Positions 3,032 to 62,182 of a DNA stretch of 64,000 nucleotides are shown here, piece by piece. The notes under the pieces were generated by a model. That model had not been told where the DNA came from and did no database searches. It saw only the letters and a program-made list of their open reading frames with translations. The stretch covers positions 10,592 through 74,591 of the forward strand of contig JAKLFF010000004.1 of NCBI GenBank assembly GCA_022711335.1. The letters are read 5' to 3'. This stretch comes from Patescibacteria group bacterium (GTDB lineage: Bacteria > Patescibacteriota > Minisyncoccia > Moranbacterales > UBA2206). The stretch's first letter is position 1, and each line of letters starts with the position of its first letter. The position numbers and the translations under genes are program-made.

Positions 3032-4327
3032 TTAAAGCCTCTCCAGGAACTCAAATACTTTTTCATTCTCAAGAGTTCCCTTGCAATAGCTATACAATCT
3101 TTCCATATCCAAATTCTTCTCCATATTCCTAACATCTTTATAATACTTGAGGGTTTTGTTGATTTCTTCTTCTATTTCTTTTGTATCAGCTTTTATGTCT
3201 TCGTCTTTGGCGATTTGCCCAAGCGCCAGGGCGGAAATTATTCTTTTTTCCGCTTGAGGTTTCCAATCAGTTTTGAGATCCTCCTTGCTTTTTTTAATAT
3301 TAGCAAGATACTGGTCTATTGTCATTCCCATCGGGCTAATTTGATGTTCAAATTCATGAAGCATTTTTTCCGTTTCCTCCTTGACGAGAATTTCAGGAAG
3401 ATCCGTTTTTGAATTTTGGACGATACTGTCTAAAAATTCAGTTCTTCTGTTTTCTTTCATTTTATGCTCTTTCTCGTGTTCAAGCCCTTCTTTCAGGCTT
3501 TTTCGAAGCATTTCAAGATTTTCAAATTTGCCAAGGGATTTTGCAAAATCATTATTGATTTCCGGGGTCTGCCTTTCCTGAACTAAATTCATCTTGACCT
3601 TAAATGTAGCCGCTTTTCCAGCCAAATCTTTCTTGTGATAATCAGCCGGAAATGACAATTCGAATTCCTTTTCTTCCCCCTCTTTCATTCCGATTATATT
3701 TTCTTCAAATCCGGGAATAAAAACACCTTTTCCAATTATCAGCGGATGTTTCTCGCTCTTTCCATTTTCAATCGGCGCCCCGCCGACAGACACTTCAAAA
3801 TCAATTTCCACGCTGTCTCCTTTTTTCGCTTCGCGTCTGACTGTTACCAGCTTCACCCGGCTCGCGGCCAGTTTTTCAACTTCAAGATCAACATCCTTTT
3901 CATCAACCTGGCTTTCTTTTTTAGAAAATTCCTCGTTGATTTTTTTTATCTCTTTTTTGTAGGCTGGCTCTATTTTTATTTCCGGCATAATTGATACCGT
4001 TGCCTTATATCTAAGATCTTTTCCCTCTTCCATTTCCACTATTTCCACTTTAGGGCTGCCGATGACTTCCAATTTTTTTTTCTCCGCCAGCTGGCGGACA
4101 TATTCAACATAGCTCTTTCTGACCGCTTTTTCTGAAGCCTCATTGAGAATGGCTGCTTTTCCTATTTTTTGCTCTACGATATTTCTCGGCGCTTTTCCAG
4201 GACGAAAACCAGGAATTTTTATCTCTCCTGATAATTCTTCCGCCGCCTGGTCCAGATATTTTTTCCAATCCTCCCAAGACACCGCCAATTCAAATTCAAT
4301 TTGAGATTTAGGTAGTTTTTTGATCAT
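3032..4327 (-). CDS. tig: Trigger factor
   Basis: 431 aa; N-terminal ...GFRPGKAPRNIVEQK... ribosome-binding signature; the classic tig-clpP adjacency. Confidence 0.9.
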   Translation of the reverse strand: MIKKLPKSQIEFELAVSWEDWKKYLDQAAEELSGEIKIPGFRPGKAPRNIVEQKIGKAAILNEASEKAVRKSYVEYVRQLAEKKKLEVIGSPKVEIVEMEEGKDLRYKATVSIMPEIKIEPAYKKEIKKINEEFSKKESQVDEKDVDLEVEKLAASRVKLVTVRREAKKGDSVEIDFEVSVGGAPIENGKSEKHPLIIGKGVFIPGFEENIIGMKEGEEKEFELSFPADYHKKDLAGKAATFKVKMNLVQERQTPEINNDFAKSLGKFENLEMLRKSLKEGLEHEKEHKMKENRRTEFLDSIVQNSKTDLPEILVKEETEKMLHEFEHQISPMGMTIDQYLANIKKSKEDLKTDWKPQAEKRIISALALGQIAKDEDIKADTKEIEEEINKTLKYYKDVRNMEKNLDMERLYSYCKGTLENEKVFEFLERL

Positions 4328-4365
4328 AATTCAGGCTCTTAATTATAATTCTTCAATTTCATTGA

Positions 4366-6357
4366 TTACAATAACATCCCAACTATCAACAAAGCTACGA
4401 TATTCAGAATTTTTATCATCGGATTAATCGCCGGTCCGGCTGTGTCTTTGTAAGGATCGCCGACTGTATCTCCGGTCACCGCCGCCTGATGAGCGAAGCT
4501 TCCTTTTCCTCCATATTCTCCATTTTCAATATATTTTTTGGCGTTGTCCCAGGCTCCGCCTCCGCTTGTCATGGAAACCGCTACAAAAATTCCAGTGATA
4601 ATCGATCCAACCAAAAGCCCTCCAAGAGCATGCACGCCCAGAATGAATCCGACCAAGATCGGTACAACAACCGGAATAAGCGCTGGCACAATCATTTCGC
4701 TAATAGCCGCCTTAGTTACAATATCGACTGTTCTTCCGTAATCTGGGTTTTCCGTTCCCGCCATAATCCCGGGCTTTTCTTTAAACTGATTGCGCACTTC
4801 TTCTACGACTGACCCAGCTGCTCTTCCTACCGCCTGCATAGAAAGCGCTCCAAAATAATACGGTAGAAGGCCGCCAATGAAAAGTCCGGCAAGAACTTTT
4901 GGATCGTTGATTAAAAATTGAAACGATCCGGGTATGCTATAGGTAAAGTCAGAAAATAGAACTAGCGCCGCAAGGGCTGCGCTGCCAATTGCATAGCCCT
5001 TCGTTACTGCTTTTGTCGTATTTCCAACCGCATCCAGCGGATCAGTAATATTCCTAACATCTTCTCCCATTTCCGCCATTTCAGCAATTCCTCCCGCATT
5101 GTCTGTAATCGGACCATAAGAATCAATTGCCACAATTATTCCCGCCATGGAAAGCATGGCCATTGCCGCAATTGAAACCCCATAAATTCCGGCTAGTTCA
5201 TAAGCGCCTAGAGTTGCCGCAACAATAACAATAACCGGCCAGGCAGTCGATTTCATGGAAACTGCCAATCCTGCGATAACGTTAGTGCCGTGTCCCGTCT
5301 GGGATGCTTTGGCAATATCTTTCACCGGCTGATATTTAGTCGAGGTGTAATATTCAGTGATAATTACCATCGCCGCTGTCACTGCGAGCCCGATAAGGGA
5401 AGCCAGGTATAAATTCAGCGTTTCATATTTTCCATTGCCAAACATAAGATAATCAGTCGCCGGATAAAAAGCAATCGCCGCTAAAACTCCTGAAACAATA
5501 AGGCCCTTATAAAGCGCGCCCATTATGTTTGGGTTTTTATCCTCTCCTAATTTTACAAAGAAAGTTCCAACTATTGAAGTTATGATTGAAATCGCGCCAA
5601 GAACCAAAGGAAAAATAATAGCATTCGGAAAAGTCTTGAAAAGCAAAGACCCTAGAATCATTGTTGCAATCGAAGTTACCGCGTAAGTTTCAAAAAGATC
5701 AGCGGCCATTCCGGCGCAATCTCCGACATTATCCCCAACATTGTCCGCAATCACAGCTGGATTTCTTGGATCATCTTCCGGAATTCCCGCTTCCACTTTT
5801 CCAACCAAATCCGCTCCCACATCGGCCGCTTTCGTGAAAATTCCTCCTCCAAGCCGCGCGAAAATTGAAATCAAAGATCCGCCGAATCCAAAACCAATAA
5901 GCGCATGAATATCTTTGGTAACAAAATAAAATCCAGCCGTTCCGAGAAGTCCAAGTCCGACAACCAAAAGTCCAGTTACGCTGCCGCCTTGAAAAGCCAC
6001 CGTAAGAGCCTTTTGCATTCCAGATCGCGCCGCTTCCGCTGTTCGCACATTCGCCCGCACAGAAACATTCATGCCGATATAGCCAGTCAAAGCTGAAAGA
6101 AACGCTCCGATAATAAAAGCAACGGCTGTCATCCATCCCAGAGACGGAATGAATCCGATAACAATAAACAATACAGCCGCCACCATCGCTACTGTCTTAT
6201 ACTGGCGGTTAAGATAGGCTTTCGCCCCTTCCTGGATAGCTTTCGCAATCGATTGCATTTTTTCATTTCCAGAAGGCAGTTTTATCACTTTTTCAATTAG
6301 AATGATGCCATAGATTATGGCCAGTGCTGCTCCCCCTAGCACAAATAGAGTCACCAT
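4366..6357 (-). CDS. hppA: Membrane-bound H+/Na+-translocating pyrophosphatase
   Basis: 663 aa polytopic protein with the PPase motifs [19 protein letters not shown] and DNVGDNVGD. Confidence 0.9.
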
Positions 6358-18285: not shown

Positions 18286-18372
18286 ATTTAGAATAAAGAA
18301 TCATGAATTTCCATATTCAAAATTCAATATCTCTATTCTAAATTCCAAATTCACAATTCTAAATTCTTTTCT
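18286..18372. repeat. AT-rich hairpin-forming short-unit repeat (GAATTT/AAATTC units)
   Basis: Intergenic imperfect palindrome of AATTC/GAATT units. Confidence 0.5.
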
Positions 18373-19332
18373 ATGCCTAACTTTTTCCAAGAATTTCATA
18401 CTCTGAATTATACTATCAAGAATTCTGATAACGTTCTTCTTTTTGCCCATTCCCGGCCAGACGGCGACACGGCCGGCGCCAGCCTTGCTCTCAAGGAATA
18501 TATAAAAAACATCGGCGGAAAAGCCGAAGTTGCCTGTTTCGATCCCCTGCCGGATTATCTGAAAGATACTACTGGGAATGATTTTAAATTTCCAAGCCAA
18601 ATTGATCTTGGTCAATATAAATTAATAATCGCCACCGACAGCGTAGACCGCGGGTTTAATAAAATAAAAGATCGGGTTGGTGAAAATCAAATCACCGCAA
18701 TTCTTGACCATCATCCAGATATAACGACCCGCGGCGATATTAATATCATAGACCCCGCTTTTTCCTCTGTTTGTGAAATTGTATATGAATTTTTCATCTT
18801 TAATAAAATCGAAATCAATCGGAAGATGGCCACTTGTCTCATGCTCGGAATTTTGGGGGACACTGGAATGTTTCAACATTCCAACACCACTCCCCACGCG
18901 CTTGAAATCGCCTCCCATCTCATGAAACTCGGCGCCCCCCTTTCAAAAATAGTCCAGATGTCTTTTTCTAACAAAAAAATCTCCACCCTGAAGCTTTGGG
19001 GCAAAGCATTTGAAAAAGCCAAGATCGATTCAAAAAATGGAATGATCTTCACGGTCCTCACTCAAAATGATATCGCGGAATGTGAAGCCAGCAATGACGA
19101 CATTGCCCAGGTTTCCGGGATTCTAAACACCGTTCCCGGAACCCGCTTCGCCATGATTCTTTCCGAACGGGGAGACGGAATTGTAAAGGGTAGCCTGCGA
19201 TCGGAAGAATATAAAGATGTCGACGTTTCCAAAATCGCCGCAAGGCTCGGTGGTGGCGGCCACAAACTGGCGAGCGGGTTTGAAATCAAGGGAAAAATCG
19301 TTGAAACGGAGGATGGATGGAAAATAATATAA
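18373..19332 (+). CDS. nrnA: DHH-DHHA1 phosphoesterase (NrnA-like oligoribonuclease/pAp phosphatase)
   Basis: LLFAHSRPDGDTAGASLAL, DHH, GGGGHKLASGF. Confidence 0.8.
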   Translation: MPNFFQEFHTLNYTIKNSDNVLLFAHSRPDGDTAGASLALKEYIKNIGGKAEVACFDPLPDYLKDTTGNDFKFPSQIDLGQYKLIIATDSVDRGFNKIKDRVGENQITAILDHHPDITTRGDINIIDPAFSSVCEIVYEFFIFNKIEINRKMATCLMLGILGDTGMFQHSNTTPHALEIASHLMKLGAPLSKIVQMSFSNKKISTLKLWGKAFEKAKIDSKNGMIFTVLTQNDIAECEASNDDIAQVSGILNTVPGTRFAMILSERGDGIVKGSLRSEEYKDVDVSKIAARLGGGGHKLASGFEIKGKIVETEDGWKII

Positions 19333-19408
19333 AATTAAAATGTAAAAATCAAAAATTAAAATTTATGTGTCGCTTCGCGACATTTTTTTTGTATGCTAAG
19401 ATAATCCT

Positions 19409-20233
19409 ATGAACATCGGCTGCCACATTTCCATCGCCGGAGGAATTCAAAATGCGCCTGAGCGAGCGCACGATTTGGGATGCGAAGTGATGCAAATTTT
19501 CACCCGCTCTCCCCAAGGAGGAAAAGCGCCGGAGCTTACTAAAGAAATTATTAATTCATTCAAAATTCAAAATTCAAAATTCAAAATTCTTAATACTTAT
19601 ATTCACACACCGTATTATATAAACTTCGCTTCCGGCAACAACCGCATCCGCTACGGATCAGTGAGTGTCGTCCGGGATGAACTGGAGCGCGGAAGCCTCC
19701 TCGGTGCGAAATATGTCATGACTCATCTTGGATCAGCCAAAGAATTGGGACAAAAAAAAGCCCTTACCAAAACGATTGAGATGCTCAAAAAAACTTTGGA
19801 AGGATACGCTGGAACAACTAAATTGCTCTTGGAAAACAGCGCTGGAGCTGGAGAAATCATCGGCGATGACTTATCGGAATTAGCCGGAATTATTAAGAAA
19901 GTCAACCATCCGGCTTTAGCTGGAATCTGTCTTGATACCCAACACTCTTTTGCTTCCGGTTATGACTGGCGGGATTTTGAAAAAACCATCAAAAAGATTT
20001 CTTACGAAGTCGGACTTCGTAAGATCAAACTTATCCATGCCAATGACAGCCAGACCGATTTTGATTCTAAAAAAGACCGCCATGAACATATCAGGAAAGG
20101 AAAAATAGGTTTGGACGCTTTCAAAAATATCGTCGCTTTTGCTCAAAAAAATGAGATTGATATGATTTTGGAAACCAAATGGCCGGAAGTGAAGGAAGAC
20201 ATAAGTGTGTTAAAAAAATTAAGAGATGCATAA
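19409..20233 (+). CDS. nfo: Endonuclease IV (AP endonuclease family 2) with an in-frame repeat insertion
   Basis: MNIGCHISIAGG...; the insertion NSFKIQNSKFKIL is encoded by tandem AAATTCAAAATTC units at about 19555-19600. Confidence 0.8.
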   Translation: MNIGCHISIAGGIQNAPERAHDLGCEVMQIFTRSPQGGKAPELTKEIINSFKIQNSKFKILNTYIHTPYYINFASGNNRIRYGSVSVVRDELERGSLLGAKYVMTHLGSAKELGQKKALTKTIEMLKKTLEGYAGTTKLLLENSAGAGEIIGDDLSELAGIIKKVNHPALAGICLDTQHSFASGYDWRDFEKTIKKISYEVGLRKIKLIHANDSQTDFDSKKDRHEHIRKGKIGLDAFKNIVAFAQKNEIDMILETKWPEVKEDISVLKKLRDA

Positions 20234-20234
20234 T

Positions 20235-20322
20235 TGTCATTCCCGCGAAAGCGTGAATCTAGTAAAGTAAAAAACCAATAAGTTAAGACTGGATCCCGGG
20301 TCAAGCCCGGGATGACAAATCT
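20235..20322 (+). promoter_or_regulatory. Two-hairpin RNA motif (GNRA-loop hairpin A plus TCAAG-loop hairpin B) occluding the downstream RBS; copy 1
   Basis: ATTCCCGC-GAAA-GCGTGAAT at 20239..20258 and ATCCCGGG-TCAAG-CCCGGGAT at 20293..20313; the GGGA of hairpin B lies 14 nt before the ATG at 20328. Confidence 0.5.
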
Positions 20323-20327
20323 ATCTT

Positions 20328-20831
20328 ATGAAAATAGCTATCATTTCCGACATCCACAATAACACCACCAATCTTCAAAAAGTCCTGAATTACTGCAGAT
20401 ATAATGAGATTAAAACCATTATCTGTTGCGGCGATCTGGCGTCAGATGAAACGCTGGATTTTTTAAATGATAATTTTAACGGAGCAATTCATTATACTTT
20501 TGGCAACATGGACAATGATCAGTTAAAAAGTCATTTAGACGCTAAAATATATAAGCACACAAACATTTATAATAATTTTGGGGAAGTTGAGATAGAGAAC
20601 AAAAAAATCGCTTTCGTTCATTTTCCAGAAATTGCCAGAAAACTTGCGGAAACTGGGAAATATAATTTCGTTTTTTATGGCCACACCCACAAGCCTTGGG
20701 AAGAAATAATCGGAAAATGCAAAATGCTGAATCCGGGAAATGTAGCGGGAGAGATATATTTTCCGACTTTTGCAGTCTGGAACACAGAAAATGATAAATT
20801 TGACCTTATAAGAATTCACAATCTTAAATAA
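20328..20831 (+). CDS. Metallophosphoesterase (YfcE/MJ0936-like)
   Basis: MKIAIISDIHNN...CCGDL...GHTH. Confidence 0.7.
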   Translation: MKIAIISDIHNNTTNLQKVLNYCRYNEIKTIICCGDLASDETLDFLNDNFNGAIHYTFGNMDNDQLKSHLDAKIYKHTNIYNNFGEVEIENKKIAFVHFPEIARKLAETGKYNFVFYGHTHKPWEEIIGKCKMLNPGNVAGEIYFPTFAVWNTENDKFDLIRIHNLK

Positions 20832-20945
20832 TAGAATTTTGAATTTAGTATTTGGAATTTGGAATGAGAATCAAGAATATAGAATCTAGATTCAAAATTC
20901 CGTATTCTCATTCTAAATTCTGAATTCACAATTCTAAATTCACAA
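20832..20945. repeat. AT-rich hairpin-forming short-unit repeat
   Basis: Imperfect palindrome of GAATTT/TAGAAT units. Confidence 0.5.
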
Positions 20946-21530
20946 ATGAATAAACAAGAACAACTTAAAAACCTTAACGACCGCATGATGAAATGCAGCC
21001 AATGTGCCCTGCGCAGCGGTTGCACCCAAGTCGTTCCCGGAGAGGGATCAGCAGACGCAGAAATCATGTTTATCGGCGAAGGGCCTGGGCAAAAAGAAGA
21101 CGAGCTGGGCCGGCCATTTGTCGGTGCGGCTGGAAAGTTTCTCGACGAAATGCTGGGGATTATTAACCTGAAGCGCGAAGAAGTTTACATTGCTAATATT
21201 GTCAAATGCCGCCCGCCCCAAAATCGCGATCCACTTCCTGAAGAAGCGGCTGCCTGCTGGCCATGGCTTCTTTCTCAAATAAAAATCATCCAACCAAAAC
21301 TCATCGTCACTCTCGGCCGCCATTCAATGGAAAGATTCTTGCCCAATCAAAAAATTTCCCAAATCCATGGCCGGGCAATGAAAAGAGAAGTAGACAAGAT
21401 AGGAAAACAAGTATTTTATACTCTTTATCACCCCGCCGCCGCGCTCTATAACGGTTCCATGCGCGAACTGCTAATTAAGGATTTCAAACGTATTCCGAAA
21501 GTGATTGAAAAAATAAAAGAAGCTATTTGA
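20946..21530 (+). CDS. udg: Uracil-DNA glycosylase, family 4
   Basis: GEGPGQKEDELGRPFVGAAGKFLD...NIVKCRPPQNRDP. Confidence 0.8.
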   Translation: MNKQEQLKNLNDRMMKCSQCALRSGCTQVVPGEGSADAEIMFIGEGPGQKEDELGRPFVGAAGKFLDEMLGIINLKREEVYIANIVKCRPPQNRDPLPEEAAACWPWLLSQIKIIQPKLIVTLGRHSMERFLPNQKISQIHGRAMKREVDKIGKQVFYTLYHPAAALYNGSMRELLIKDFKRIPKVIEKIKEAI

Positions 21531-25419: not shown

Positions 25420-25674
25420 CTACATTTTTTCTTTTAGAATTTCCCTGATTTTTTTTCTTCCAGCACAGCTTTTGTAATATCTTTCCATATATCTAGCCTC
25501 TGCTAGCAAATTGTAATTTTCCTGATAAATTAATTCCATCGGCAATCTATTTTTTGTACTTTCTACCTTGCCTTTTTCATGTTGTGCGAGTCTTCTTTTT
25601 AAATCATCAGTAGAACCAATGTAAGTTTTTCCATCTTTTAAGCTTTTTAAAATATATAGATATCCTGTTATCAT
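25420..25674 (-). CDS. Small GIY-YIG (URI-domain, UPF0213/YhbQ-like) nuclease family protein
   Basis: YLYILKSLKDGKTYIGSTDDLKRRLAQHEKG... Confidence 0.7.
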   Translation of the reverse strand: MITGYLYILKSLKDGKTYIGSTDDLKRRLAQHEKGKVESTKNRLPMELIYQENYNLLAEARYMERYYKSCAGRKKIREILKEKM

Positions 25675-25745
25675 GGCTTTACTAATTCCGCCCGCCTCGC
25701 GTCGACGAGCGGTCGTCTCCGCAAGTCGAGGCGGGCCATCAAGGC
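25675..25745 (-). other. Duplicated 5' fragment of tRNA-Leu (acceptor and D-arm) split by a 44-nt GC-rich nested hairpin
   Basis: The minus strand reads GCCTTGATGGC[hairpin GCCCGCCTCG...CGAGGCGGGC]GGAATTAGTA; compare the start of tRNA-Leu(CAG), GCCTTGGTGGCGGAATTGGTA. Confidence 0.5.
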
Positions 25746-26049: not shown

Positions 26050-26066
26050 ACTAAGCTAATTTCTTA

Positions 26067-26118
26067 CCCTCCTCTCCCCTTGGGAGAGGATGTCCCGTTT
26101 AGCGGGACAGGAGAGGGG
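26067..26118. repeat. GC-rich nested-hairpin element (CCTCTCC...GGAGAGG family)
   Basis: CCTCTCCCC-TTG-GGAGAGG, GTCCCG-TTTAG-CGGGAC, GGAGAGGGG; about 60% GC in a roughly 35% GC genome. Confidence 0.5.
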
Positions 26119-26123
26119 AAAAA

Positions 26124-26990
26124 TTAATCATTTAGATTATTCTTATATAATCTCTTTGCAGTCTCGACTGTATTTTTCATCAGCATCGCCACCGTCATCG
26201 GCCCAACGCCTCCTGGAACCGGAGTGATCGCGCTGGCAATTTCTTTCACGTTTTCAAAGTCCGCGTCTCCAACTAATTTTCCATTCGATAATCTATTCAT
26301 CCCGACGTCCACAACCACAACTCCCTTTTTTATCATGTCTTTTTTAATCAGTCCAGCTTTGCCGACCGCAGTAACTAAAATATCCGCTCTTTTTGTAATT
26401 TCTCCTAAATTTTCTGTTTTTATATGAGCCACTATGACTGTCGCGTTCTCTTCGAGAAACATCATCGCCATCGGCTTTCCGACAATATTGCTCTTTCCCG
26501 CAACCACGCATTCCCTTCCTGAAATTTCGATATTATTTCTTTTTAATATTTCCATAATTCCTGCTGGAGTGCACGGTAATAATTTTCCAATACCGATAGA
26601 CAGTTTTCCAACATTTTCCGGGTGAAAACAATCCACGTCTTTCTTAGGATCAATTGATTCAATAATTTTTCCTTCATCAATATGTTTTGGGAGAGGCAGC
26701 TGCACCAGAATTCCATGAGTTTTTTCATCCGCATTTAGTTTTTGAATCAGTTTCAATAATTCTTCTTCCGTTGTACATTCCGGCATCTCAAAAACCTGGG
26801 AATTAATTTCCATTTCCTCGCAAGCTTTCTTTTTGTTATCTACATAAATCTTTGAAGCCGGATCATCGCCAACGAGTATTACAACCAAGCCCGGAGCTAT
26901 TCCGGTTTTTTTAAGCTGCGCTATTTCTATTTTCAGCTCTTCCTTGATTTCAGAGGCTAATTTTTTCCCGTCTAATATTTTTGCGCTCAT
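26124..26990 (-). CDS. folD: Bifunctional methylene-THF dehydrogenase/cyclohydrolase
   Basis: ...GLVVILVGDDPASKIYV..., ...HGILVQLPLP... Confidence 0.85.
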   Translation of the reverse strand: MSAKILDGKKLASEIKEELKIEIAQLKKTGIAPGLVVILVGDDPASKIYVDNKKKACEEMEINSQVFEMPECTTEEELLKLIQKLNADEKTHGILVQLPLPKHIDEGKIIESIDPKKDVDCFHPENVGKLSIGIGKLLPCTPAGIMEILKRNNIEISGRECVVAGKSNIVGKPMAMMFLEENATVIVAHIKTENLGEITKRADILVTAVGKAGLIKKDMIKKGVVVVDVGMNRLSNGKLVGDADFENVKEIASAITPVPGGVGPMTVAMLMKNTVETAKRLYKNNLND

Positions 26991-27780: not shown

Positions 27781-27796
27781 ATCACTATCTTTATGT

Positions 27797-27846
27797 CATT
27801 CCCGCGAAAGCCTGCCTGTCCGGTAGGCAGGCAGGAATCTAGTTAT
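27797..27846 (+). promoter_or_regulatory. Hairpin-A-like leader element (partial copy of the two-hairpin motif, with an inserted sub-hairpin)
   Basis: GTCATTCCCGCGAAAGC[CTGCCTGTCCGGTAGGCAGGCAG]GAATCTAG directly upstream of the rarA ATG. Confidence 0.4.
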
Positions 27847-29043
27847 ATGAATACTTCCCCTCTCGCCGATCGAATCCGCCCCCAGACTCTCAATGAATTC
27901 TTCGGCCAGAAAAAACTAATCAGCAAAAATTCCTATCTCCAAAACGCGATTGAAAATGACCGCGTACCTTCAATGATTTTTTGGGGTCCGCCCGGATCGG
28001 GAAAAACAACTCTTGCCCAAATTATCGCCAACCTTACGAAGTCCGACTTCATAAAACTTTCCGCGGTTTCATCCGGCAAAAAACAACTGGTAGAAATTGT
28101 TGAAAAAGCGAAAGAAAATATAAAAATTAAAAAGAAAACTATTCTTTTTATCGATGAAATTCATCGTTGGAACAAAGCTCAGCAGGACGCTCTTCTTCCC
28201 TACGTTGAAAACGGAACTATCATTCTCATCGGCGCCACCACTGAAAATCCCAGTTTTGAAGTCATTGGCGCTCTCATTTCTCGCGCTCGGGTTTTTGTTT
28301 TGGAAAAATTGGAAAAAGAAGATATTGAAAAAATCTTAAAGCGTGCAATTAGCATTGTAGGGAACGCACATGTGCGTTCCGAAAAAAAAATAAAAATCTC
28401 CGAAGACACTATTAGGTTGATTTCCAATCTTTCCAATGGCGATGCCCGCATGGCGCTAAACACCCTGGAAGCTTTGATCAACGCAAACAAAAATATAACT
28501 GAAAAACTCGTCAAAGAAATTCTCCAAAAAACCCATCTGCTTTATGATAAAACCGGCGAAGAGCATTATAATATTATTTCCGCCCTCCACAAATCCATGC
28601 GCGGAGGCGATGCCAATGCCGCTCTCTATTGGCTCGCTCGCATGATTGAAGGTGGCGAAGATCCGCTCTACATTGCCCGAAGGTTAGTTCGATTCGCTTC
28701 CGAAGACATTGGCCTTGCCAATAACACTGCCTTAATTTTAGCCAATGCTGTTTTTGATGCTTGTCACAAGCTGGGTTACCCAGAATGCAATGTCCATCTG
28801 GCTCAATGCGTCATTTATCTTTCTAAATCCAAAAAGGACGTAACCGCCTACCTGGCTTATGAAAAAGCCAAGAAAGATGTGACTGATTTTGGCAATCTTC
28901 CTATCCCCTTCCACATCAGGAACGCTCCGACAAAACTGATGAAAGAATTGGGATATGGAAAAAATTACAAATACACGCCTCTTGAAGACAGCTCAGATCA
29001 AACTTACCTTCCGAATAAACTGAAAAACAAAAAATACATATAA
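27847..29043 (+). CDS. rarA: Replication-associated recombination protein A (AAA+ ATPase)
   Basis: GPPGSGKTTLAQIIA Walker A and MgsA-type C-terminal domain; the track ORF start at 27793 is created by an ATG inside the repeat. Confidence 0.85.
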   Translation: MNTSPLADRIRPQTLNEFFGQKKLISKNSYLQNAIENDRVPSMIFWGPPGSGKTTLAQIIANLTKSDFIKLSAVSSGKKQLVEIVEKAKENIKIKKKTILFIDEIHRWNKAQQDALLPYVENGTIILIGATTENPSFEVIGALISRARVFVLEKLEKEDIEKILKRAISIVGNAHVRSEKKIKISEDTIRLISNLSNGDARMALNTLEALINANKNITEKLVKEILQKTHLLYDKTGEEHYNIISALHKSMRGGDANAALYWLARMIEGGEDPLYIARRLVRFASEDIGLANNTALILANAVFDACHKLGYPECNVHLAQCVIYLSKSKKDVTAYLAYEKAKKDVTDFGNLPIPFHIRNAPTKLMKELGYGKNYKYTPLEDSSDQTYLPNKLKNKKYI

Positions 29044-35477: not shown

Positions 35478-37334
35478 ATGAATTATATTTACTGTTTTTG
35501 GAGTAAACTCAAAATAAAACCAGATATTTGGTTTTTTTATGGATTTTTATTAACTTTTACTTTTAGTATCCGGAAAGTACTGTTTTACTTTCCAATTAAA
35601 GGAACTTTTAATGAATATACCGGAATATACGTTTATATTTCCGATATTTTTTTATTTTTCACGATGTTATCGTGGATTATACTCATATTATCCAATAAAA
35701 ACATTTATTTGTCAAACTGTAAGTTGTGGATAACTCAACTTATACACAGTTTATATTGTAAAATAGCCCTAGAATTAAAGTTTATTTTTTTTAATCGTTC
35801 AATTAACCTACCAAATAATTATTATGAAAATAGTTCAACTGATAAAGTCTCTAAATGTTCTACACATGCCTTATTACTTTCAAATGTTTCGTCTCTTGAA
35901 AAATGTTCCACGTGGAACATTACATGGAACAAACATGGTATATTCATCATTATTCCATTAGTCATTGTAATATGGTCATTTATATCAATCATATGGTCGT
36001 CTAATCAAACCATAGCTGTTTTTAGATCTATCAAACTTTTTGAGTATTTTTTGTTATATTCATATATTGCATTTAGACTTGTTCCATTTATTAAATCAAA
36101 AGTATGTTCCACATTTGCTTCACAAATTGTTCCACGTGGAACAATTTTTATGGGATGGAATAGTATAATGGTGATTATTATAATAATTGGCTTATTTCAG
36201 TCAATAATTGGAATCATCCACTTCATTGATCAACACTCAATTGGCCTTTTTTGGCTTAAAGAAAGCATAATTTCACCTGATATCGCTGGCGTAGCCAAAA
36301 TTGTTATAAATGGCCAGAAATATATCAGGGCCTATGGCCTATTTCCTCATCCCAATATTCTGGGTGGATTTTTGTTGTTTTCAATTATCATTACACTCAT
36401 GTATTACAGAATGTTCCATGCTTGCCGTGTAACATCTAATTGTTCTACGCCTGCCCCGTTTAATGTTCCACGTGGAACAATTCTCAATTCCCTTATCCTC
36501 GTCCAATCCATCGCATTTTTTTTAACATTTTCTAAATCAGCCATTCTGGGACTGACAATTTCCCTGTTTTATATGTATATTGCTCCTCATCTGGTTAGTG
36601 CGACTAAAATGTTCCACCCCATAAAACTTCAAAATGTTCCACATGGAACAATTGGAAGTAATGGGGCAGGCGTGGAACATTTCAAATCCCTAGACAGTAA
36701 AATGTCTTTAAATAATATAAAGCATGATCGTAATTTAAGAATTGCGTTATTAATATTTCTCATAATTATTCTGACTTTCTATCTATCATGGACAACCGTT
36801 GACTCAATGATCCGAAACTCAATTGAACAGCGTATAATCTATCTCAATGTTTCACGTGGAACAATATTGGCCAATCCAGTTCTTGGCATTGGAATGGGCC
36901 AATTCGTTCCCAATATGCAAAAATATACCGCTAATCTTGAACTATGGCAATTTCAGCCTGTTCATAACGTATTTTTACTAATTTGGTCAGAGTTGGGGAT
37001 AGTTGGATTAGGCTTTTTTACATATTGGATGTACAAAATGTTCCACATGAAACACAAAACCCTCTCTCCTTTACAAGGAGAGGGCTGGGATGAGGTAAAT
37101 AAGGTTACAAGCGAAACAAATGATAGGGAAGTAGCTAATTCTGATAAATCTATATTACAAAATAAAAGCAATTCTTTGTCAAGTGGTATAACCCTTCGGT
37201 ATTTTAAGGCAATTCTTCTTGGATTCATTTTTATAATGCTTTTTGACCACTATTTTTGGGATATCCAGCAGGGGAATATCATGCTTTGGATGACGATGGG
37301 ATTTATTGCTGGATTGAATAAAAATATTACATAA
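35478..37334 (+). CDS. O-antigen ligase (Wzy_C/WaaL-like) family membrane protein carrying multiple in-frame palindrome insertions
   Basis: Polytopic; ...YGLFPHPNILGG..., ...QPVHNVFLLIWSELGIVGL...; frame intact across 618 codons. Confidence 0.55.
   Translation: MNYIYCFWSKLKIKPDIWFFYGFLLTFTFSIRKVLFYFPIKGTFNEYTGIYVYISDIFLFFTMLSWIILILSNKNIYLSNCKLWITQLIHSLYCKIALELKFIFFNRSINLPNNYYENSSTDKVSKCSTHALLLSNVSSLEKCSTWNITWNKHGIFIIIPLVIVIWSFISIIWSSNQTIAVFRSIKLFEYFLLYSYIAFRLVPFIKSKVCSTFASQIVPRGTIFMGWNSIMVIIIIIGLFQSIIGIIHFIDQHSIGLFWLKESIISPDIAGVAKIVINGQKYIRAYGLFPHPNILGGFLLFSIIITLMYYRMFHACRVTSNCSTPAPFNVPRGTILNSLILVQSIAFFLTFSKSAILGLTISLFYMYIAPHLVSATKMFHPIKLQNVPHGTIGSNGAGVEHFKSLDSKMSLNNIKHDRNLRIALLIFLIIILTFYLSWTTVDSMIRNSIEQRIIYLNVSRGTILANPVLGIGMGQFVPNMQKYTANLELWQFQPVHNVFLLIWSELGIVGLGFFTYWMYKMFHMKHKTLSPLQGEGWDEVNKVTSETNDREVANSDKSILQNKSNSLSSGITLRYFKAILLGFIFIMLFDHYFWDIQQGNIMLWMTMGFIAGLNKNIT
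35903..37060. repeat. Array of at least 7 copies of the palindrome (A)ATGTTCCACGTGGAACA(TT), plus half-sites and an associated GCCTGCCCC submotif
   Basis: Perfect copies at 35903..35920, 36125..36146, 36465..36480; near-perfect copies at 36631..36652, 36846..36865, 37036..37056; half-sites at 36104, 36411, 36607, 36671. Confidence 0.8.
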
Positions 37335-37569: not shown

Positions 37570-37651
37570 TTGTAGGGACAGACCTTATGTCTGTCCTGAA
37601 TTTTTTATTTGTATTTTTTTATTTTGGGCGGACACAAGGTCCGCCCCTACA
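37570..37651. repeat. REPIN/BIME-like 82-bp element, copy L (TIR TTGTAGGG/CCCTACAA, two 8-bp-stem hairpins)
   Basis: GGACAGAC-CTTAT-GTCTGTCC and GGGCGGAC-ACAAG-GTCCGCCC. Confidence 0.6.
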
Positions 37652-38682: not shown

Positions 38683-38764
38683 TTGTAGGGACAGACCTTG
38701 TGTCTGTCCTGAATTTTTTATTTGTATTTTTTTATTTCGGGCGAACACAAGGTTCGCCCCTACA
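38683..38764. repeat. REPIN/BIME-like 82-bp element, copy R (about 93% identical to copy L, same orientation)
   Basis: Same TIRs and hairpins as copy L. Confidence 0.6.
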
Positions 38765-40242: not shown

Positions 40243-40264
40243 CTACAAAATATCTTTTGACTGG

Positions 40265-40284
40265 ATTCCCGCTTTCGCGGGAAT
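40265..40284 (-). promoter_or_regulatory. Isolated hairpin A of the two-hairpin motif (perfect ATTCCCGC-GAAA-GCGGGAAT), 13 nt after the gyrA stop
   Basis: The minus strand reads TTTGTCATTCCCGCGAAAGCGGGAATCCAG. Confidence 0.45.
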
Positions 40285-40297
40285 GACAAAATAAATT

Positions 40298-42744: not shown

Positions 42745-42864
42745 AATTAAAATTTTCAATTCACAATTTTCAATTTTCAATCAATTTACAATTTCATAAT
42801 TTTCAATGACTAAAACATTTAATCATTGGAAATTGTTTAGAAATTAGAAATTGAAAATTAGAAA
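42745..42864. repeat. AT-rich imperfect palindrome of about 115 bp made of short units (TTCAATTT / GAAATTG)
   Basis: Left arm TTCAATTTTCAATT; right arm GAAATTGAAAATTAGAAATT. Confidence 0.5.
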
Positions 42865-43140
42865 TTAATTTTGATTTTGCAAATTCCCTTGCCCCTGAAA
42901 ACCGCTTTTCATTTGGCCGGTTACGTCTTCAAGCGATTTTTTTTGATCCTTAAACTGCTCCAGAATTTGGGGATTCGGAGTTATCTCAGAAGCCGTATTT
43001 TTCTTATTTTGCGCCACAATTGACACTATCCAGATAGCAACAACAAAAACCATTGAAATAGAGACCCACATCCAAACATAGCGAATGCGGATATACTCCG
43101 GCTTTTGGCGAATTTCATCAATTTTGTCTTGCAATCCCAT
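42865..43140 (-). CDS. Hypothetical small membrane protein
   Basis: 91 aa with one TM helix. Confidence 0.4.
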   Translation of the reverse strand: MGLQDKIDEIRQKPEYIRIRYVWMWVSISMVFVVAIWIVSIVAQNKKNTASEITPNPQILEQFKDQKKSLEDVTGQMKSGFQGQGNLQNQN

Positions 43141-51408: not shown

Positions 51409-53295
51409 ATGCGAAATTTACTCAAAAATATCGGGATTGTTCTCCTAGTTTTCATGTTTATTGCCGCCATATCCATACTTTACAGTTCTCCCCAAGCCAA
51501 GCCTCAGTCGGTCTCTTTAAGCACTCTTGTTTCGGAAATCAATGATGGAAAAGTAAAAGAGATATCTATCGACAGCGACAATCTTAAAATTACTCTCGCT
51601 GACGGAACAACTCAAAAATCTACCAAAGAAAAAGAAACGGGATTCACAGAATCGCTCAAAAACTATGGGGTGGACAACGAAAAGTTAACTCCTATAAACA
51701 TTGACATCAAAGGAGAATCATCCACTTCTTTTTGGCTTTCCAATCTTCTGCCGTTCATAATTCCTTTTATCCTGGTAGCTGCTTTTGTCTGGTTTATGTT
51801 CCGCCAAGCCCAGCGAGGAAATTCTCAGGCGCTTTCTTTCGGAATGAGCCGCGCCAGAATGACCGACCCCAAAGATAAAAAAGGGAGGATAACTTTTGCC
51901 AATGTCGCGGGAGCCAAAGAAGCTAAGGAAGAATTATATGAAATAGTTGAATTTCTAAAAAATCCTAAAAAATTCCTAAATCTCGGAGCCAAAATTCCCA
52001 AAGGCGTGCTTCTCCTTGGATCGCCCGGAACCGGAAAAACTTTGATTTCAAAAGCAGTGGCTGGAGAAGCCAATGTCCCGTTTTTTAATATTTCCGGATC
52101 AGAATTTGTGGAAATGTTTGTGGGAGTCGGAGCATCGCGCGTACGCGACCTTTTTAAACAAGCCAAAAGAAATGCACCTGCTATTGTTTTTATAGACGAA
52201 ATTGACGCTGTTGGACGACATCGCGGAGCCGGGCTTGGCGGAGGACACGACGAGCGCGAGCAAACATTAAACCAAATTCTTGTAGAAATGGACGGATTTG
52301 ACACCAGCACCAATGTGATTGTTATTGCTGCCACCAACCGCCCGGATGTTCTTGATCCGGCACTTCTTCGTCCCGGAAGATTTGACCGCCGGGTAGTTAT
52401 GGATCTTCCGGATATTGAGGAAAGGCTGGAAATTTTGAAAATTCACTCAAAAAATAAACCTATATTAAAGGGAGTGAATCTTCGAGTAATTGCTCAAAGA
52501 ACTTCAGGATTTTCCGGAGCCGATCTTGCTAATTTATTGAATGAAGCGGCTATTCTTGCTGCCAGACGCAGCAAAAAAACCATCGGGATGGAAGAGCTTG
52601 CCGAATCAATTGAAAAAGTAATCTTAGGGCCGGAACGAAAAAGCCGCCGAATTGATGAACAGGAGAAAAAAATAATTGCCTATCATGAAGCTGGACACGC
52701 GCTTGTCGGAGCTACTCTCAAAAATGCTGATCCGGTCCAAAAAGTTTCCATAATCTCGAGAGGACATGCCGGAGGATATACCTTGAGCGCTCCAGAAAAA
52801 GACAAGACTCTCCATAGCCGAAAATATTTTATCGACGAGCTATCTGTGCTTCTCGGGGGTTATGTGAGCGAAAAAATTACTTTTGGCGATATCACTACCG
52901 GCGCCTCCAATGATTTAGAAAGAGCAACGGCAATGGCCAGAAATCTAGTGACAAGATACGGGATGAGCGATTTGGGACCAAGAACCTTCGGACATAAAGA
53001 AGAGTTGATATTCCTGGGAAAAGATCTTCATGAAGAAAAAAATTACTCGGAAAAAACCGCCGAAGACATCGACAAACAAGTTTCCCAGTTTATTGAAAAT
53101 GCATATCAGGTAGCGAAAAGAATTCTCACCGACAAAAAAGAAACCTTGGACAAAATATCCTCTATCCTTCTTGAAAGGGAAACAATCGAGCAGGAAGAAT
53201 TCAATGCATTAGTGGGAATACCAACAAAAGATAAGGCTGAAGATGAAAAAGAAACCCAAGAAAAAACAGAAGTACGGGTAAATTTGAAAGGCTAA
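51409..53295 (+). CDS. ftsH: ATP-dependent zinc metalloprotease FtsH
   Basis: Two TM helices; AAA domain GSPGTGKTL; HEAGHAL zinc motif. Confidence 0.9.
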
Positions 53296-53393
53296 ATTTA
53301 AAATTTGAAATGAATTTTAAATATTTAAATTTTAATTTAACATTTACCAATTTATCAATTTTTAAATTGATTGAAAATTGAAAATTTTCATCA
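53296..53393. repeat. AT-rich hairpin-forming short-unit repeat (AAATTT/AATTTTAAA units)
   Basis: Intergenic. Confidence 0.45.
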
Positions 53394-55098: not shown

Positions 55099-55173
55099 TG
55101 GTGGGACCAGCTGGATTCGAACCAGCGACCAAGCGGTTATGAGCCGCCTGCTCTACCACTGAGCTATGGTCCC
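55099..55173 (-). tRNA. tRNA-Met(CAT) (elongator or tRNA-Ile2)
   Basis: GGGACCATAGCTCAGTGGTAGAGC...; anticodon loop CUCAUAA; CCA encoded. Confidence 0.75.
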
Positions 55174-55443
55174 CAAATATTTTCTTAATTTTTTTCTTAA
55201 ATCCTCTCGACCTTTTGTTGTTTTATAATATTTTTCATTTCTTTCTGCGTCCTCTTTCTCAGAAAAACATTCATAATAAATCAGCTTGACCGGCAACCTC
55301 TTGCTAGTTGATTTAACCTTTCCTTCCTTGTGTTGATTATATCTTAATTTCAGATTACTCATAAAACCTATATAAAATTTGTTGTCTTTTAAACTTAGCA
55401 ATATGTAAACAAAAAACATACTTTTTACGATTATGCCCAGCAA
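55153..55443 (-). CDS. Small GIY-YIG (URI-domain, UPF0213/YhbQ-like) nuclease family protein (copy 2)
   Basis: FFVYILLSLKDNKFYIGFMSNLKLRYNQHKEG...; the last 7 codons (KYLGTIAQW, then TAG) are encoded by the 5' part of tRNA-Met; the real start is probably the internal Met (MFFVYIL). Confidence 0.65.
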   Translation of the reverse strand: MLGIIVKSMFFVYILLSLKDNKFYIGFMSNLKLRYNQHKEGKVKSTSKRLPVKLIYYECFSEKEDAERNEKYYKTTKGREDLRKKLRKYLGTIAQW

Positions 55444-57894: not shown

Positions 57895-58047
57895 CTGAGA
57901 TATTAAAAAAGTCCGGTTTGTTTCCGGGCTTTTTTTATTTTTATAAAGTTTCTTCATATTCAATTTTTAATTTAAAATTTTTAATTTTTAATCAATTTCG
58001 AATTTATTAATGTCTAAATTTTAAATTAAAACTTAAAATTGAAAATT
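57895..58047. repeat. AT-rich hairpin-forming short-unit repeat (AATTTTTAA / AAATTTTAAA units)
   Basis: Intergenic between convergent genes. Confidence 0.45.
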
Positions 58048-60267
58048 TTAAATTTTTTTGAGTGGCGCTATGTTAGCCGATAATTTTTTCAGTCCGACTT
58101 TCGAAAAAGCTATTGTTATTACATCACCCTGCGTTGCCACTATCATTCCATCGCCGAAAACCGTATGCCTTACTCGATCACCATCCTTAAATTTAATATT
58201 TTGTATTTCAAAATTATTTTCCTTTTTAAAATTGGAAATTTTATCATTAAAATTTGATTGTAAACTGGTAATTGGTAATTGGTAATTCCGCACAAGGTGC
58301 GACGGTATATCATCCAGAAAACGGGACGGTGGATTGATTTGGGTCGACCCAAAAATATTTCTTTCTGATGTAAAGAGCAGATATACTTTTTCCTTGGCCC
58401 TGGTTATACCGACATACATAAGCCTTCTCTCTTCTTCCATTTCACTGTGATCAAGCATGCTCCTGGAATGAGGCAGAATCCCTTCTTCAAGCCCGGCAAT
58501 GAAAACCACCCGAAACTCAAGCCCTTTGGCGCTGTGGAGCGTCATAAGATGCACAGATTCGATGTTTTGATCGATATTATCCGTGTCGGATACTAAAGCC
58601 ACTTCTTCTAAAAACAAATTTAATCCCTCTTCTCCTTCATAATCTTCGTATTTTTTAGCGACGGTCAGCAATTCACGGACATTTTCTTGGCGCATCTCGC
58701 CCTCTTCAGTTCCATCCAGCAGATATTTTTCATAACCGGATTCAACGAAAACTTTTTGGATAAAGTCAGTGATTAGCAGTTTCTTTTTCAATTCTGCCAT
58801 TCGCACTATAAATTCTGAGAATTTAGATATGGCATCCAATTTTGCATCTCGTATTTTATATTTGGTATTTTTTATTTGGTCATTTAGAATTGGAGTTTTT
58901 TTGGAAATTGGTAATTGGAAATTGGAAATTGCGAGACCGGTTTCAATCAAGTCTTTGTTGTTCTTCCTGGCAAGTTGAGTCCACTTACCTAGCGTAATAT
59001 CACCTATTCCTCGTTTCGGCTCGTTTATTATCCTTTCTAAGCTGACTTCATCGCTAAAATTATTAATCAATCTTAAATACGCAACCACGTCCTTTACCTC
59101 TTTTCTCTGATAAAATTTTATCCCGCCAATGATACGGTAGGGAATAGAATTTCTTAGCATCACTTCCTCAATAATTCTAGATTGCGCGTTGGTTCTGTAG
59201 AGAATAACAAAATCGCCATAGGCATGCTTAGTTTTTTTCATCTTTTGAATTTCCTCTGCAATAAATTCAGCTTCATTTTTTTCATTATCAGCTTCATAGG
59301 AAACCAACAGATGCCCGCCTGAATTTTCAGTCCATATTTTTTTGTCTTTGCGGTTTACGTTTTTTGAAATAACTCCATAGGCCGCATCCAAAATGTTCTG
59401 CGTGGAACGATAATTTTGCTCAAGTTTTATCACCTTTGCTTTAGGATAGTCCTTTTCAAAATCCAAGATATTTTGAATGTTAGCTCCCCGCCAAGAATAA
59501 ATCCCCTGCCAATCATCCCCCACGACACAGATATTTCCATGCTTTTGGCTCAATAGTTTTATAAGCAGATACTGAGCATGATTGGTATCTTGATATTCGT
59601 CCACCATGATGTAGCGAAAAATATTCTGATATTTTTTCAGAACTTCTGGAAATCGTTGAAAGACCTTGGCTGTGTACATCAAAATGTCATCAAAATCCAG
59701 CGCGTTTTGCTCTTTTAGCTTTTTCTGATAATTTGTATAAATTTTAGAAACCACTTCCTCGAAATATCCGCCAATGCCTTTTTTAAATTCCTCGGCATCA
59801 ATCAATTCATTTTTGGCCTTGGATATAGCGCCTAGAATCGCTTTCGGCCGAAATTGCTCCACATCGATTTGCATCTCCTTCATTGTCCTTTTCATGAGAG
59901 CCAATTGATCCTGATCGTCAAAAATATTAAAACTGGTTTTGAATCCAATTTTATCAATCTCCCGGCGTAAAATTTTCACACAGATTGAATGGAATGTTCC
60001 CATAACAGGGAAGTTGGCATCTCCTCCATTGCTTTCAAGCAAACTTTTTATCCTCTCTTTCATCTCCTGCGCCGCCTTATTGGTAAAAGTCACCGCTAAA
60101 ATATTTCCCGGCCTCACTCTTTTTTCGCAGATGAGATAGGCTACCCGGTGCGTCAGCGCCCTGGTTTTCCCCGATCCCGCCCCAGCAATAATCAAAACCG
60201 GCCCTTCGGTCGTAGTCACAGCTTCTTTTTGACTATTATTAAGCTTTTCTAAAATGTTGTCTTTCAT
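58048..60267 (-). CDS. pcrA: ATP-dependent DNA helicase PcrA/UvrD with two in-frame repeat insertions
   Basis: [18 protein letters not shown]...; insertions [22 protein letters not shown]... (58190..58285) and [18 protein letters not shown]... (58860..58935) are encoded by AATTGGTAATTGG-type tandem units. Confidence 0.85.
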
Positions 60268-60394: not shown

Positions 60395-60664
60395 ATGGCA
60401 CTCAACGCCAAACAAAAAGCCAGAGTAACTAAAGAAGTAAAAAGGCATGAAAAAGACTCCGGATCACCAGAATATCAAATTGCGCTTTTTACCGAAAGAA
60501 TCAAAAAATTGACCGCGCATCTAAAGAAAAATACAAAGGATTTTCACTCTAGACGCGGGCTTCTTAAGATGGTATCCAAACGGAAAAAATTGATGGACTA
60601 TCTCAAAAAAACAAATGAAAAAGCCTACAAAGCTTTAGTTAAAAAATTAGGATTAAAAGGATAA
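60395..60664 (+). CDS. rpsO: 30S ribosomal protein S15
   Basis: [44 protein letters not shown]...; the track ORF start at 60254 lies upstream. Confidence 0.85.
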
Positions 60665-60671
60665 CTCAACA

Positions 60672-60750
60672 TGTCATTCCTGCGGAAGTAGGAATCTAGT
60701 GCAAAAATTAGATTCAATGACTAGATCCCGAGTCAAGCTCGGGATGAAAA
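60672..60750 (+). promoter_or_regulatory. Two-hairpin RNA motif occluding the downstream RBS; copy 2, with compensatory base changes
   Basis: ATTCCTGC-GGAA-GTAGGAAT at 60676..60695 and ATCCCGAG-TCAAG-CTCGGGAT at 60725..60745; the GGGA lies 14 nt before the ATG at 60758. Confidence 0.5.
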
Positions 60751-62029: not shown

Positions 62030-62160
62030 ACTCAAAACGCAAAACTCAAAACGCAATCCGCCGACTGGCGGATAAAGCTAAAAACTTAAAACTTTTAGTT
62101 TTAAGCTGTAGCTTTAAACTTTGAGCTTTGAACTTTGAGCTTATTATATATACGTCATTA
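62030..62160. repeat. Inverted short-unit repeats (AAACTCAAAACGC ... AAGCTGTAGCTTTAAACTTTGAGC)
   Basis: In the 5' leader region of pnp. Confidence 0.45.
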
Positions 62161-62182
62161 GCGCAAGGCTAGTACGCAAATC

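Follow-up and report, generated by a model that had tools for sequence, protein, structure and literature searches.

In a Candidatus Moranbacteria genome of the candidate phyla radiation (CPR, Patescibacteria), two intergenic elements, each built from two hairpins and here called composites 1 and 2, lie within the 64-kb stretch of DNA that was analysed (hereafter, the window). The closest described systems are the CGTC-tagged repetitive extragenic palindromes (REPs), a superfamily whose units consist of a CGTC tag (or TGTC/CCTC), a stem of 8–9 bp opening with A/T pairs and a CCA-like tail (Di Nocera, De Gregorio & Rocco 2013, PMC3733652). The loop measures 4 nt in family 1, which includes dRS3, and 5 nt in families 2–4. 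The units occur predominantly as tags-outward (HH) dimers with a spacer of 20–100 bp, placed between unidirectional or convergent open reading frames (ORFs) near the 3' end of the upstream ORF, and roles at the RNA level have been proposed for them (PMC3733652). The dRS3 palindrome is defined as ATTCCC-N8-GGGAAT, and its extended form, NTS, reads CGTCATTCCCGCGMAVGCGGGAATCYRG (Chenal et al. 2025, PMC11893778). In experiments with Neisseria and Wolbachia, NTS-type repeats were bound as single-stranded DNA (ssDNA) hairpins by SsnA, a 94-aa single-domain GIY-YIG nuclease that cuts a few nucleotides 5' of the tag and is inactive on the reverse strand, on double-stranded DNA and on RNA; repeats of the SRM type are associated with Ssn genes (PMC11893778). 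Other work classes this Neisseria palindrome as a REPIN linked to a Group 2 RAYT and proposes RAYT tyrosine transposases as its enzymes (bioRxiv 10.1101/2021.07.10.451892). A further point of comparison is FtrB of Francisella, a 115-nt RNA encoded between co-directional genes and detected on a Northern blot with a probe that covers a dRS3-type palindrome; loss of ftrB by deletion produced no phenotype in growth, under stress or in virulence (Postic et al. 2010, PMC3091763).

The composites are very probably HH dimers of CGTC-type (dRS3/NTS/SRM) REPs, that is, dispersed non-coding DNA repeats and not a gene-specific translational switch. Composite 1 occupies the spacer between an AP-endonuclease-2 (nfo-like) gene and the gene for a YfcE-like phosphoesterase, and composite 2 that between rpsO (encoding S15) and a gene for an NYN-domain protein (Table 1). 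Both are composed of a 4-nt-loop unit A on the top strand and a 5-nt-loop unit B on the bottom strand, with the tags facing outward and an AT-rich spacer of about 25 nt between the units. Read on its own strand, each unit follows a common layout of TGTC tag, 8-bp stem beginning with AT, short loop and CCA/CTA tail, the general form of unit A being TGTC-ATTCCCGC-GAAA-GCGGGAAT-CCAG. The tag of unit B in composite 2 is degenerate (TTTC, 60746–60749). Unit A starts 2 nt past the nfo stop codon in composite 1 and 7 nt past that of rpsO in composite 2; at the other end, the tag of unit B ends 10 nt from the yfcE-like ATG, and unit B of composite 2 ends 8 nt from the NYN ATG. Composite 1 is predicted to fold with its outer ends, TTGTCAT and ATGACAA, paired to one another, which allows one long hairpin to form. 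No target-site duplications were seen by eye at the composite ends.

An earlier, sequence-only reading of the window had reported the two composites together with a copy in the rarA leader and another beside gyrA, and all four loci are present. The two-hairpin order with a conserved TCAAG loop that it described is found in both composites and is far above chance, with three matches of the hairpin A pattern in the window against 0.36 expected and two of the hairpin B pattern against 0.00. The accompanying statement that the differences between the copies are paired and leave both helices intact holds in part. One true double compensatory change is seen in each helix (C-G to T-A in helix A, G-C to A-T in helix B), but helix A contains a C.T mismatch in composite 1 (C20243/T20254) and a G.T wobble in composite 2 (G60682/T60689), the latter position being G-C, within a perfect stem GCAGGAAT, in strains L012 and L019. 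The same reading had offered as a fallback a small mobile element with inverted-repeat ends. This was essentially right, and the element can now be named as a tags-outward dimer of CGTC-type REPs.

Comparison with the CGTC superfamily (PMC3733652) reveals the same tag, 8-bp AT-initiated stem, loops of 4 and 5 nt, CCA-like tail, HH arrangement with a spacer within 20–100 bp, and placement. The element is also multi-copy, with six units in the 64 kb and four dimers in ~71 kb, and lies 2, 7 and 9 nt past the stop codons of nfo, rpsO and gyrA. It differs in its host, a member of the CPR with 40% GC, whereas the 2013 survey detected these repeats across five phyla, mainly in alpha-Proteobacteria. 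The dimers are moreover hybrids of a 4-nt-loop and a 5-nt-loop unit, and several units hold a nested GC-rich palindrome in the loop.

The resemblance to dRS3, NTS and SRM (PMC11893778) extends to the directional organization of each unit as a hairpin with a 5' tag. The unit past gyrA (40261–40288) is identical to NTS at 27 of 28 positions (CGTCATTCCCGCGMAVGCGGGAATCYRG) and fits both dRS3, exactly, and the SRM pattern; unit A of composite 1 matches the NTS 28-mer at 26 of 28 positions (2 mismatches), and that of composite 2 deviates from the dRS3 letters through one compensated pair. The degenerate SRM pattern is matched by two units, at 20289–20317 and 40261–40288, both on the minus strand, as compared with 0.09 matches expected per shuffled window. 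In contrast to the published system, no cognate Ssn (cd10448) gene was identified in the ~71 kb covered here and the units do not cluster round particular genes; in Neisseria it is the ssDNA form of the repeat that is active, with no binding to the RNA, which does not by itself imply the same function for the present repeats. With REPINs (Bertels & Rainey 2011, PMC3116915) the composites share the pairing of two inverted REPs across a short spacer, and the Neisseria REPIN master 21-mer ATTCCCGCGCAGGCGGGAATC (bioRxiv 10.1101/2021.07.10.451892) is a palindrome of the same type as unit A. Classic REPINs are, however, GTAG-tagged, which the composites are not, and no RAYT was found in the window.

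The spread of the architecture was assessed by scanning metagenome contigs with the pattern GATCCC-NNN-TCAAG-NNN-GGGATGA. Hairpin B was recovered in at least 120 contigs of very different GC content. Among the matches listed, 120 of 128 occurrences have complementary triplets in the inner stem, and a convergent GTC-hairpin-C unit is located no more than 120 nt upstream of hairpin B in 80 of the 121 usable cases, versus 3 in shuffles; the two hairpins therefore represent the usual dimeric form of a repeat class that is very widespread. Within the same set the partners of hairpin B are of the types GTCACCCC, GTCATTCC, GTCATTGC and GTCATCCC, loop insertions of various sizes are common, and the ORFs of 120 SRM-bearing contigs include no recurrent neighbour family, only housekeeping clusters. 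The spacer length of composite 1 falls inside the range of the metagenome dimers and inside the reported 20–100 bp. On one contig from a fermentation metagenome (L102), an IS110-like ORF (3693–4676, N-terminus MDYLAFDVSKDKLD...) adjoins a hairpin B unit at 3645–3668. Targeting of REP-type palindromes is known for elements of the IS110/IS1111 group.

Comparison of related genomes shows the element to be a dispersed sequence. Two further dimers of the same species are found ~7 kb past the end of the window, in strain L011. One of these (19324–19440) lies between a G5/DPBB gene and ksgA and is flipped relative to transcription, such that the mRNA would show CUUGA, the complement of the TCAAG loop. 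The other (20305–20423) lies between ksgA and UbiA; these genes are convergent, and the dimer is therefore upstream of nothing. At the orthologous loci the element is missing. The NYN protein is 87–94% identical in four related lineages (L221–L224) that retain the rpsO-NYN synteny, and no trace of the element was found in their rpsO-NYN spacers of 91, 150, 148 and 8 nt. Likewise, three related lineages (L225, L226 and the P0160 contig) encode a YfcE-like protein with 70–78% identity, and the element is absent from their nfo-yfcE junctions, where the two genes are 1 nt apart, overlapping, or separated by 118 nt of unrelated AT-rich DNA. The relatives bear units of the same class elsewhere, for example directly past the pnp stop codon (L222 14050–14126, L223 4804–4863). 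These comparisons show that the repeat entered intergenic spacers of this Candidatus Moranbacteria lineage after its split from the relatives. It mostly sits a few nucleotides past the stop codon of the upstream gene. Immediately upstream of pnp in the window, a hairpin of the form GTCATTAGCG-loop-...AATC (62154–62182) is conserved in a related lineage (L224 11023–11043); this hairpin may either belong to the pnp leader proper or represent a REP unit that has degenerated.

Searches of the window with nhmmer at maximum sensitivity returned only six units (Table 1). Separate nhmmer profiles were used in place of a joint covariance model for units A and B, which was dropped because the structures of 4-nt-loop and 5-nt-loop units could not be brought into register. 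The TGTC tag is present in five of the six, at 20235, 20317 (reverse), 27794, 40288 (reverse) and 60672. The solo unit in the rarA leader, previously described as a third, partial copy, is indeed there and does carry an insert, but the hairpin A unit is complete, the insert being a 21-nt GC-rich palindrome within the loop. Because the unit is in frame with rarA, ORF callers extend rarA to an ATG at 27793; in strain L001 the unit is absent and the region upstream of rarA differs. The isolated hairpin A past gyrA is as had been proposed, with its stem 13 nt and its tag 9 nt past the gyrA stop codon, upstream of the gyrA terminator-like hairpin.

Table 1. Coordinates of the composites, their flanking genes and parts, and other features of the window
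Feature	Coordinates	Strand	Composition	Evidence
nfo-like gene (5' of composite 1)	19409-20233		stop TAA 20231-20233
Composite 1	20235-20322
Hairpin A, composite 1	arms 20239-20246 and 20251-20258		tag TGTC 20235-20238, loop GAAA
Hairpin B, composite 1	arms 20293-20300 and 20306-20313		loop TCAAG
REP unit A, composite 1 (CGTC-1 / NTS-like)	20235..20262	+	TGTC, stem ATTCCCGC/GCGTGAAT, GAAA, tail CTAG	nhmmer E=6e-9, bounds 20234-20263 +
AT-rich spacer, composite 1	20263..20288	.	separates both tails
REP unit B, composite 1 (CGTC-2-like)	20289..20317	-	TGTC-ATCCCGGG-CTTGA-CCCGGGAT-CCAG	SRM pattern; nhmmer, bounds 20288-20318 -
yfcE-like gene (3' of composite 1)	20328		ATG
Solo REP unit A, rarA 5' leader	27794..27842	+	loop holds 21-nt GC-rich palindrome CCTGCCTGTCCGGTAGGCAGG (27811-27831)	nhmmer, split unit A, bounds 27793-27843 +
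Solo REP unit A after gyrA	40261..40288	-	reads TGTCATTCCCGCGAAAGCGGGAATCCAG	NTS 27/28, SRM pattern; nhmmer bounds 40260-40289 -
rpsO (5' of composite 2)	60662-60664		stop
Composite 2	60672-60750
Hairpin A, composite 2	arms 60676-60683 and 60688-60695		tag 60672-60675, loop GGAA
Hairpin B, composite 2	arms 60725-60732 and 60738-60745		loop TCAAG
REP unit A, composite 2	60672..60699	+	TGTC, stem ATTCCTGC/GTAGGAAT, GGAA, tail CTAG	pattern and nhmmer, bounds 60672-60700 +
Spacer, composite 2	60700..60721	.	CTAGT...ACTAG inverted ends, lengthening the large palindrome
REP unit B, composite 2	60722..60749	-	(TTTC)-ATCCCGAG-CTTGA-CTCGGGAT-CTA	nhmmer E=2e-8, bounds 60720-60749 -
NYN-domain gene (3' of composite 2)	60758		ATG
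First single-domain GIY-YIG gene	25420-25674	-
Second single-domain GIY-YIG gene	55153-55443	-

The sequence-only reading had favoured a gene-specific translational riboregulator or RNA thermometer, in which the Shine-Dalgarno (SD) sequence of each of the two downstream genes, yfcE-like and NYN, is hidden in hairpin B and the helices are kept by selection on RNA structure. Both composites are sense-oriented and immediately upstream of an ATG, each helix has its compensatory pair, and in stability the predicted RNA folds far exceed those of shuffled sequences (z = -3.7 and -5.1); in these same folds, however, the start codon and the 13–15 nt preceding it are unpaired. The GGGA supposed to serve as the SD sequence had been placed 14 nt before the ATG in both copies, and by measurement the distance is 15 nt in copy 1 and 13 nt in copy 2. 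By comparison, ten ORFs of the window have a GGAG/GAGG core, which stands 6–8 nt from the start codon with a single outlier at 1 nt, and 38 of the 58 confidently long ORFs have no SD-like motif within 20 nt. At 13–15 nt the GGGA is not a plausible SD sequence; it is simply the 3' arm of the repeat with its tag (GGGATGAC), a conserved stem-plus-tag that recurs in hundreds of unrelated contexts. Nor does the covariation argue for selection on RNA structure as had been claimed. Two GTAG-tagged dimers in the window, of another family, likewise differ from one another by a compensatory pair (G>A / C>T), and compensatory differences are thus a family trait of DNA palindromes. Together with the absence of the element from the orthologous leaders of seven related lineages, and with the dimers that stand flipped upstream of ksgA or between convergent genes, these comparative data largely refute sequestration of an SD sequence, and regulation of this kind is very improbable.

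A less specific role in RNA, in which a transcribed dimer exapted as a 3'-end protector or processing site would tune cistron stability, or would persist as a stable small RNA (sRNA) like FtrB, is also unlikely. At the gathering threshold the Rfam search of the window returned tRNAs only. Below it, both composites match the FtrB family (RF02748) over its full length, including both hairpins and the UCAAG loop, with scores (23.9 and 21.7 bits) that are far under the gathering value of 66. FtrB has the same two-hairpin order, GUCAUUCCCGCG-loop-CGGGAAUC followed after a spacer by GAUCCC...UCAAG...GGAU, and the same position between co-directional genes, but its flanks and spacer are unrelated, and it is defined as an expressed RNA whereas the composites are known from DNA only. 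Since FtrB was detected as RNA, by the Northern blot mentioned above (PMC3091763), stable RNA can build up from a dimer of this kind once it is transcribed, and the dimers described here are probably transcribed because they lie inside operons. The location of units 2–9 nt past stop codons matches the arrangement to which Di Nocera et al. attributed possible roles at the RNA level (PMC3733652), and five of the six window units are sense to a transcript. Against such a role stand the lack of a phenotype of the ftrB deletion (PMC3091763) and the lineage-specific presence of the dimers, which speaks against an essential function. For a dispersed REP dimer, any influence on how stable the mRNA is, or on how well the next gene is translated, would be incidental.

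If the composites are CGTC-type REPs, dedicated enzymes would be expected to recognise the repeat class as hairpins in ssDNA that carry a directional tag. In the outward-facing arrangement of the tags, cleavage by such an enzyme would fall just beyond either end of the dimer, a geometry that would suit a non-autonomous miniature element. The paired substitutions in the stems would then reflect selection or propagation for hairpin formation within the repeat family, and not tuning to the downstream gene. By analogy with Neisseria, the repeats might alternatively belong to a functional host Ssn/NTS system and serve as sites for an encoded ssDNase that restricts or modulates incoming ssDNA, for example during DNA uptake. 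Such a function is improbable. It would accord with the near identity of the 40261–40288 unit to NTS, the matches to the SRM pattern and the published association of SRMs with Ssn genes (PMC11893778), and one metagenome contig (L200) does present an NTS-ssnA-NTS architecture, with a GIY-YIG ORF (466–690) between dimers at 255–350 and 703–790, the only SRM-flanked GIY-YIG ORF seen. No cd10448-type gene could be shown in the window, however, and the density of units is modest at ~6 per 64 kb. Of the two single-domain GIY-YIG genes in the window, which lie between tRNA genes with duplicated tRNA 5' halves and whose homologues lack SRM flanks, the protein compared with that of L200 is only 32% identical (alignment residues 3–59).

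The two window GIY-YIG proteins were considered as candidates for the cognate Ssn and are rejected for now, as the loci of their homologues are not enriched in SRMs and are tRNA-associated instead. In 80 genomic loci of the homologues there were 5 SRM matches in 674 kb, versus 2.2 in shuffles, and NCBIfam assigned the window proteins to no specific family. A search with Pfam that covered the ORFs of the window and the genes called in the flanking loci (~71 kb) found neither RAYT (Y1 HUH transposase, PF01797) nor any transposase family.

Several observations count against the assignment of the composites to dispersed CGTC-type REPs. No Ssn-type or RAYT-type gene is present in the 64-kb window or in the ~7 kb beyond it, the GIY-YIG genes that are present belonging to a tRNA-associated subfamily without SRMs on the flanks of its homologues. 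A pair of empty and filled sites within one species was not seen for the two composites; all near-identical strains sampled, with identical flanking proteins, carry both, and the strain comparison at these sites is uninformative for this reason. The copy number is extrapolated from ~71 kb of genome. Finally, the orientation of five of the six window units, sense to a transcript, is compatible with some selection at the RNA level.

The REP loops are themselves the site of a second class of palindrome. Within the species, between the co-occurring strains L011 and L012, GC-rich palindromes of 19–21 nt are present or absent in hairpin loops. The insert CCTGCC...GGCAGG (17–21 nt with its relatives) occupies the same loop position in three different units, and the palindrome is found free-standing in other Patescibacteria and in one Bacteroidota contig. 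Mini-palindromes of this type (CCTGCC-N3-9-GGCAGG; CCTGCCCGCCTTTGGAGGG) were located inside REP loops at 27811–27831 of the window, at 19339–19357, 19405–19421 and 20385–20405 of L011, and at the same loci in L012. It is conceivable, if rather doubtful, that REP hairpin loops in this CPR lineage are insertion targets for a second, smaller mobile palindrome, as a form of hairpin-in-hairpin parasitism; no transposase was seen in this context in the ~71 kb examined.

The small genome holds several distinct classes of palindromic repeat. The GTAG-tagged dimers, at 37572–37650 and 38685–38763, are two 86-nt HH copies with 95% identity (GTAG-GGACAGAC-CTTAT-GTCTGTCC ... GGGCGGAC-ACAAG-GTCCGCCC-CTAC) that flank a 1.1-kb segment with a TrmB-like gene; this family differs from the CGTC composites. 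A solo GTAG hairpin is situated within the rarA coding region (28357–28380). The palindrome TGTTCCACGTGGAACA is present in six copies, spaced by 171–336 nt between 35899 and 37057, inside an ORF (35478–37334) of the Wzy_C / O-antigen-ligase-like type, and in a seventh copy at 59389–59412. Arrays of an AT-rich unit of ~7 nt (AATTCNAAATTC / TTCTAAATTC), some of them forming long imperfect inverted repeats, are found in many intergenic regions (18310–18366, 19533–19589, 20834–20955, 42764–42887, 53294–53386, 57959–58055 and others), and in relatives without the REP dimer the orthologous spacers are filled by sequence of this type as well. Compound GC-rich intergenic palindromes are seen at 26060–26125 and 25690–25735 (CCCTCCTCTCCCCTTGGGAGAGG...GGACAGGAGAGGGG and GCCCGCCTCG...CGAGGCGGGC).

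The GIY-YIG genes of the window reside inside tRNA gene arrays, and on their flanks the 5' halves of the neighbouring tRNA-Leu and tRNA-Met genes are duplicated. The tRNA-Met sequence GGGACCATAGCTCAG(C/T)GGTAG appears on both sides of the second gene, and a tRNA-Leu 5' fragment upstream of the first is split by a 45-nt GC-rich hairpin. Among the homologues, drawn from 80 genomes of many phyla (loci L021–L100), 55 of 99 are within 150 nt of a tRNA gene, and the nearest tRNA is on the same strand for all 90 homologues listed except L093; one contig (L055) carries 12 tandem copies with a period of 357 nt. The arrangement looks like a selfish cassette that targets tRNA genes. The nested loop palindromes and these tRNA-associated GIY-YIG genes are more unusual than the REP dimers themselves.

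The composites represent a known REP type and not a gene-specific translational switch, and are so largely ordinary. The assignment averts a false annotation, in that what appears to be a covarying cis-regulatory RNA is a dispersed family of DNA palindromes, and a riboregulator should not be deduced from the paired substitutions by which the stems of such repeats differ from one genomic copy to another. REP dimers of the CGTC / dRS3 / NTS type, best known from Neisseria, Rickettsia, Wolbachia and alpha-Proteobacteria, are now seen in the streamlined genome of a member of the CPR (Moranbacteria), and the Francisella 'sRNA' FtrB is tied to the same repeat architecture. In Moranbacteria operons the dimers might shield the 3' end of the cistron before them or lower initiation at the one that follows. 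Their co-option as RNA elements between cistrons, in a genome largely without SD sequences, is conceivable but rather doubtful. Should a cognate Ssn or RAYT exist in this metagenome-assembled genome, CPR genomes would add to the sources of ssDNA enzymes specific for hairpins.

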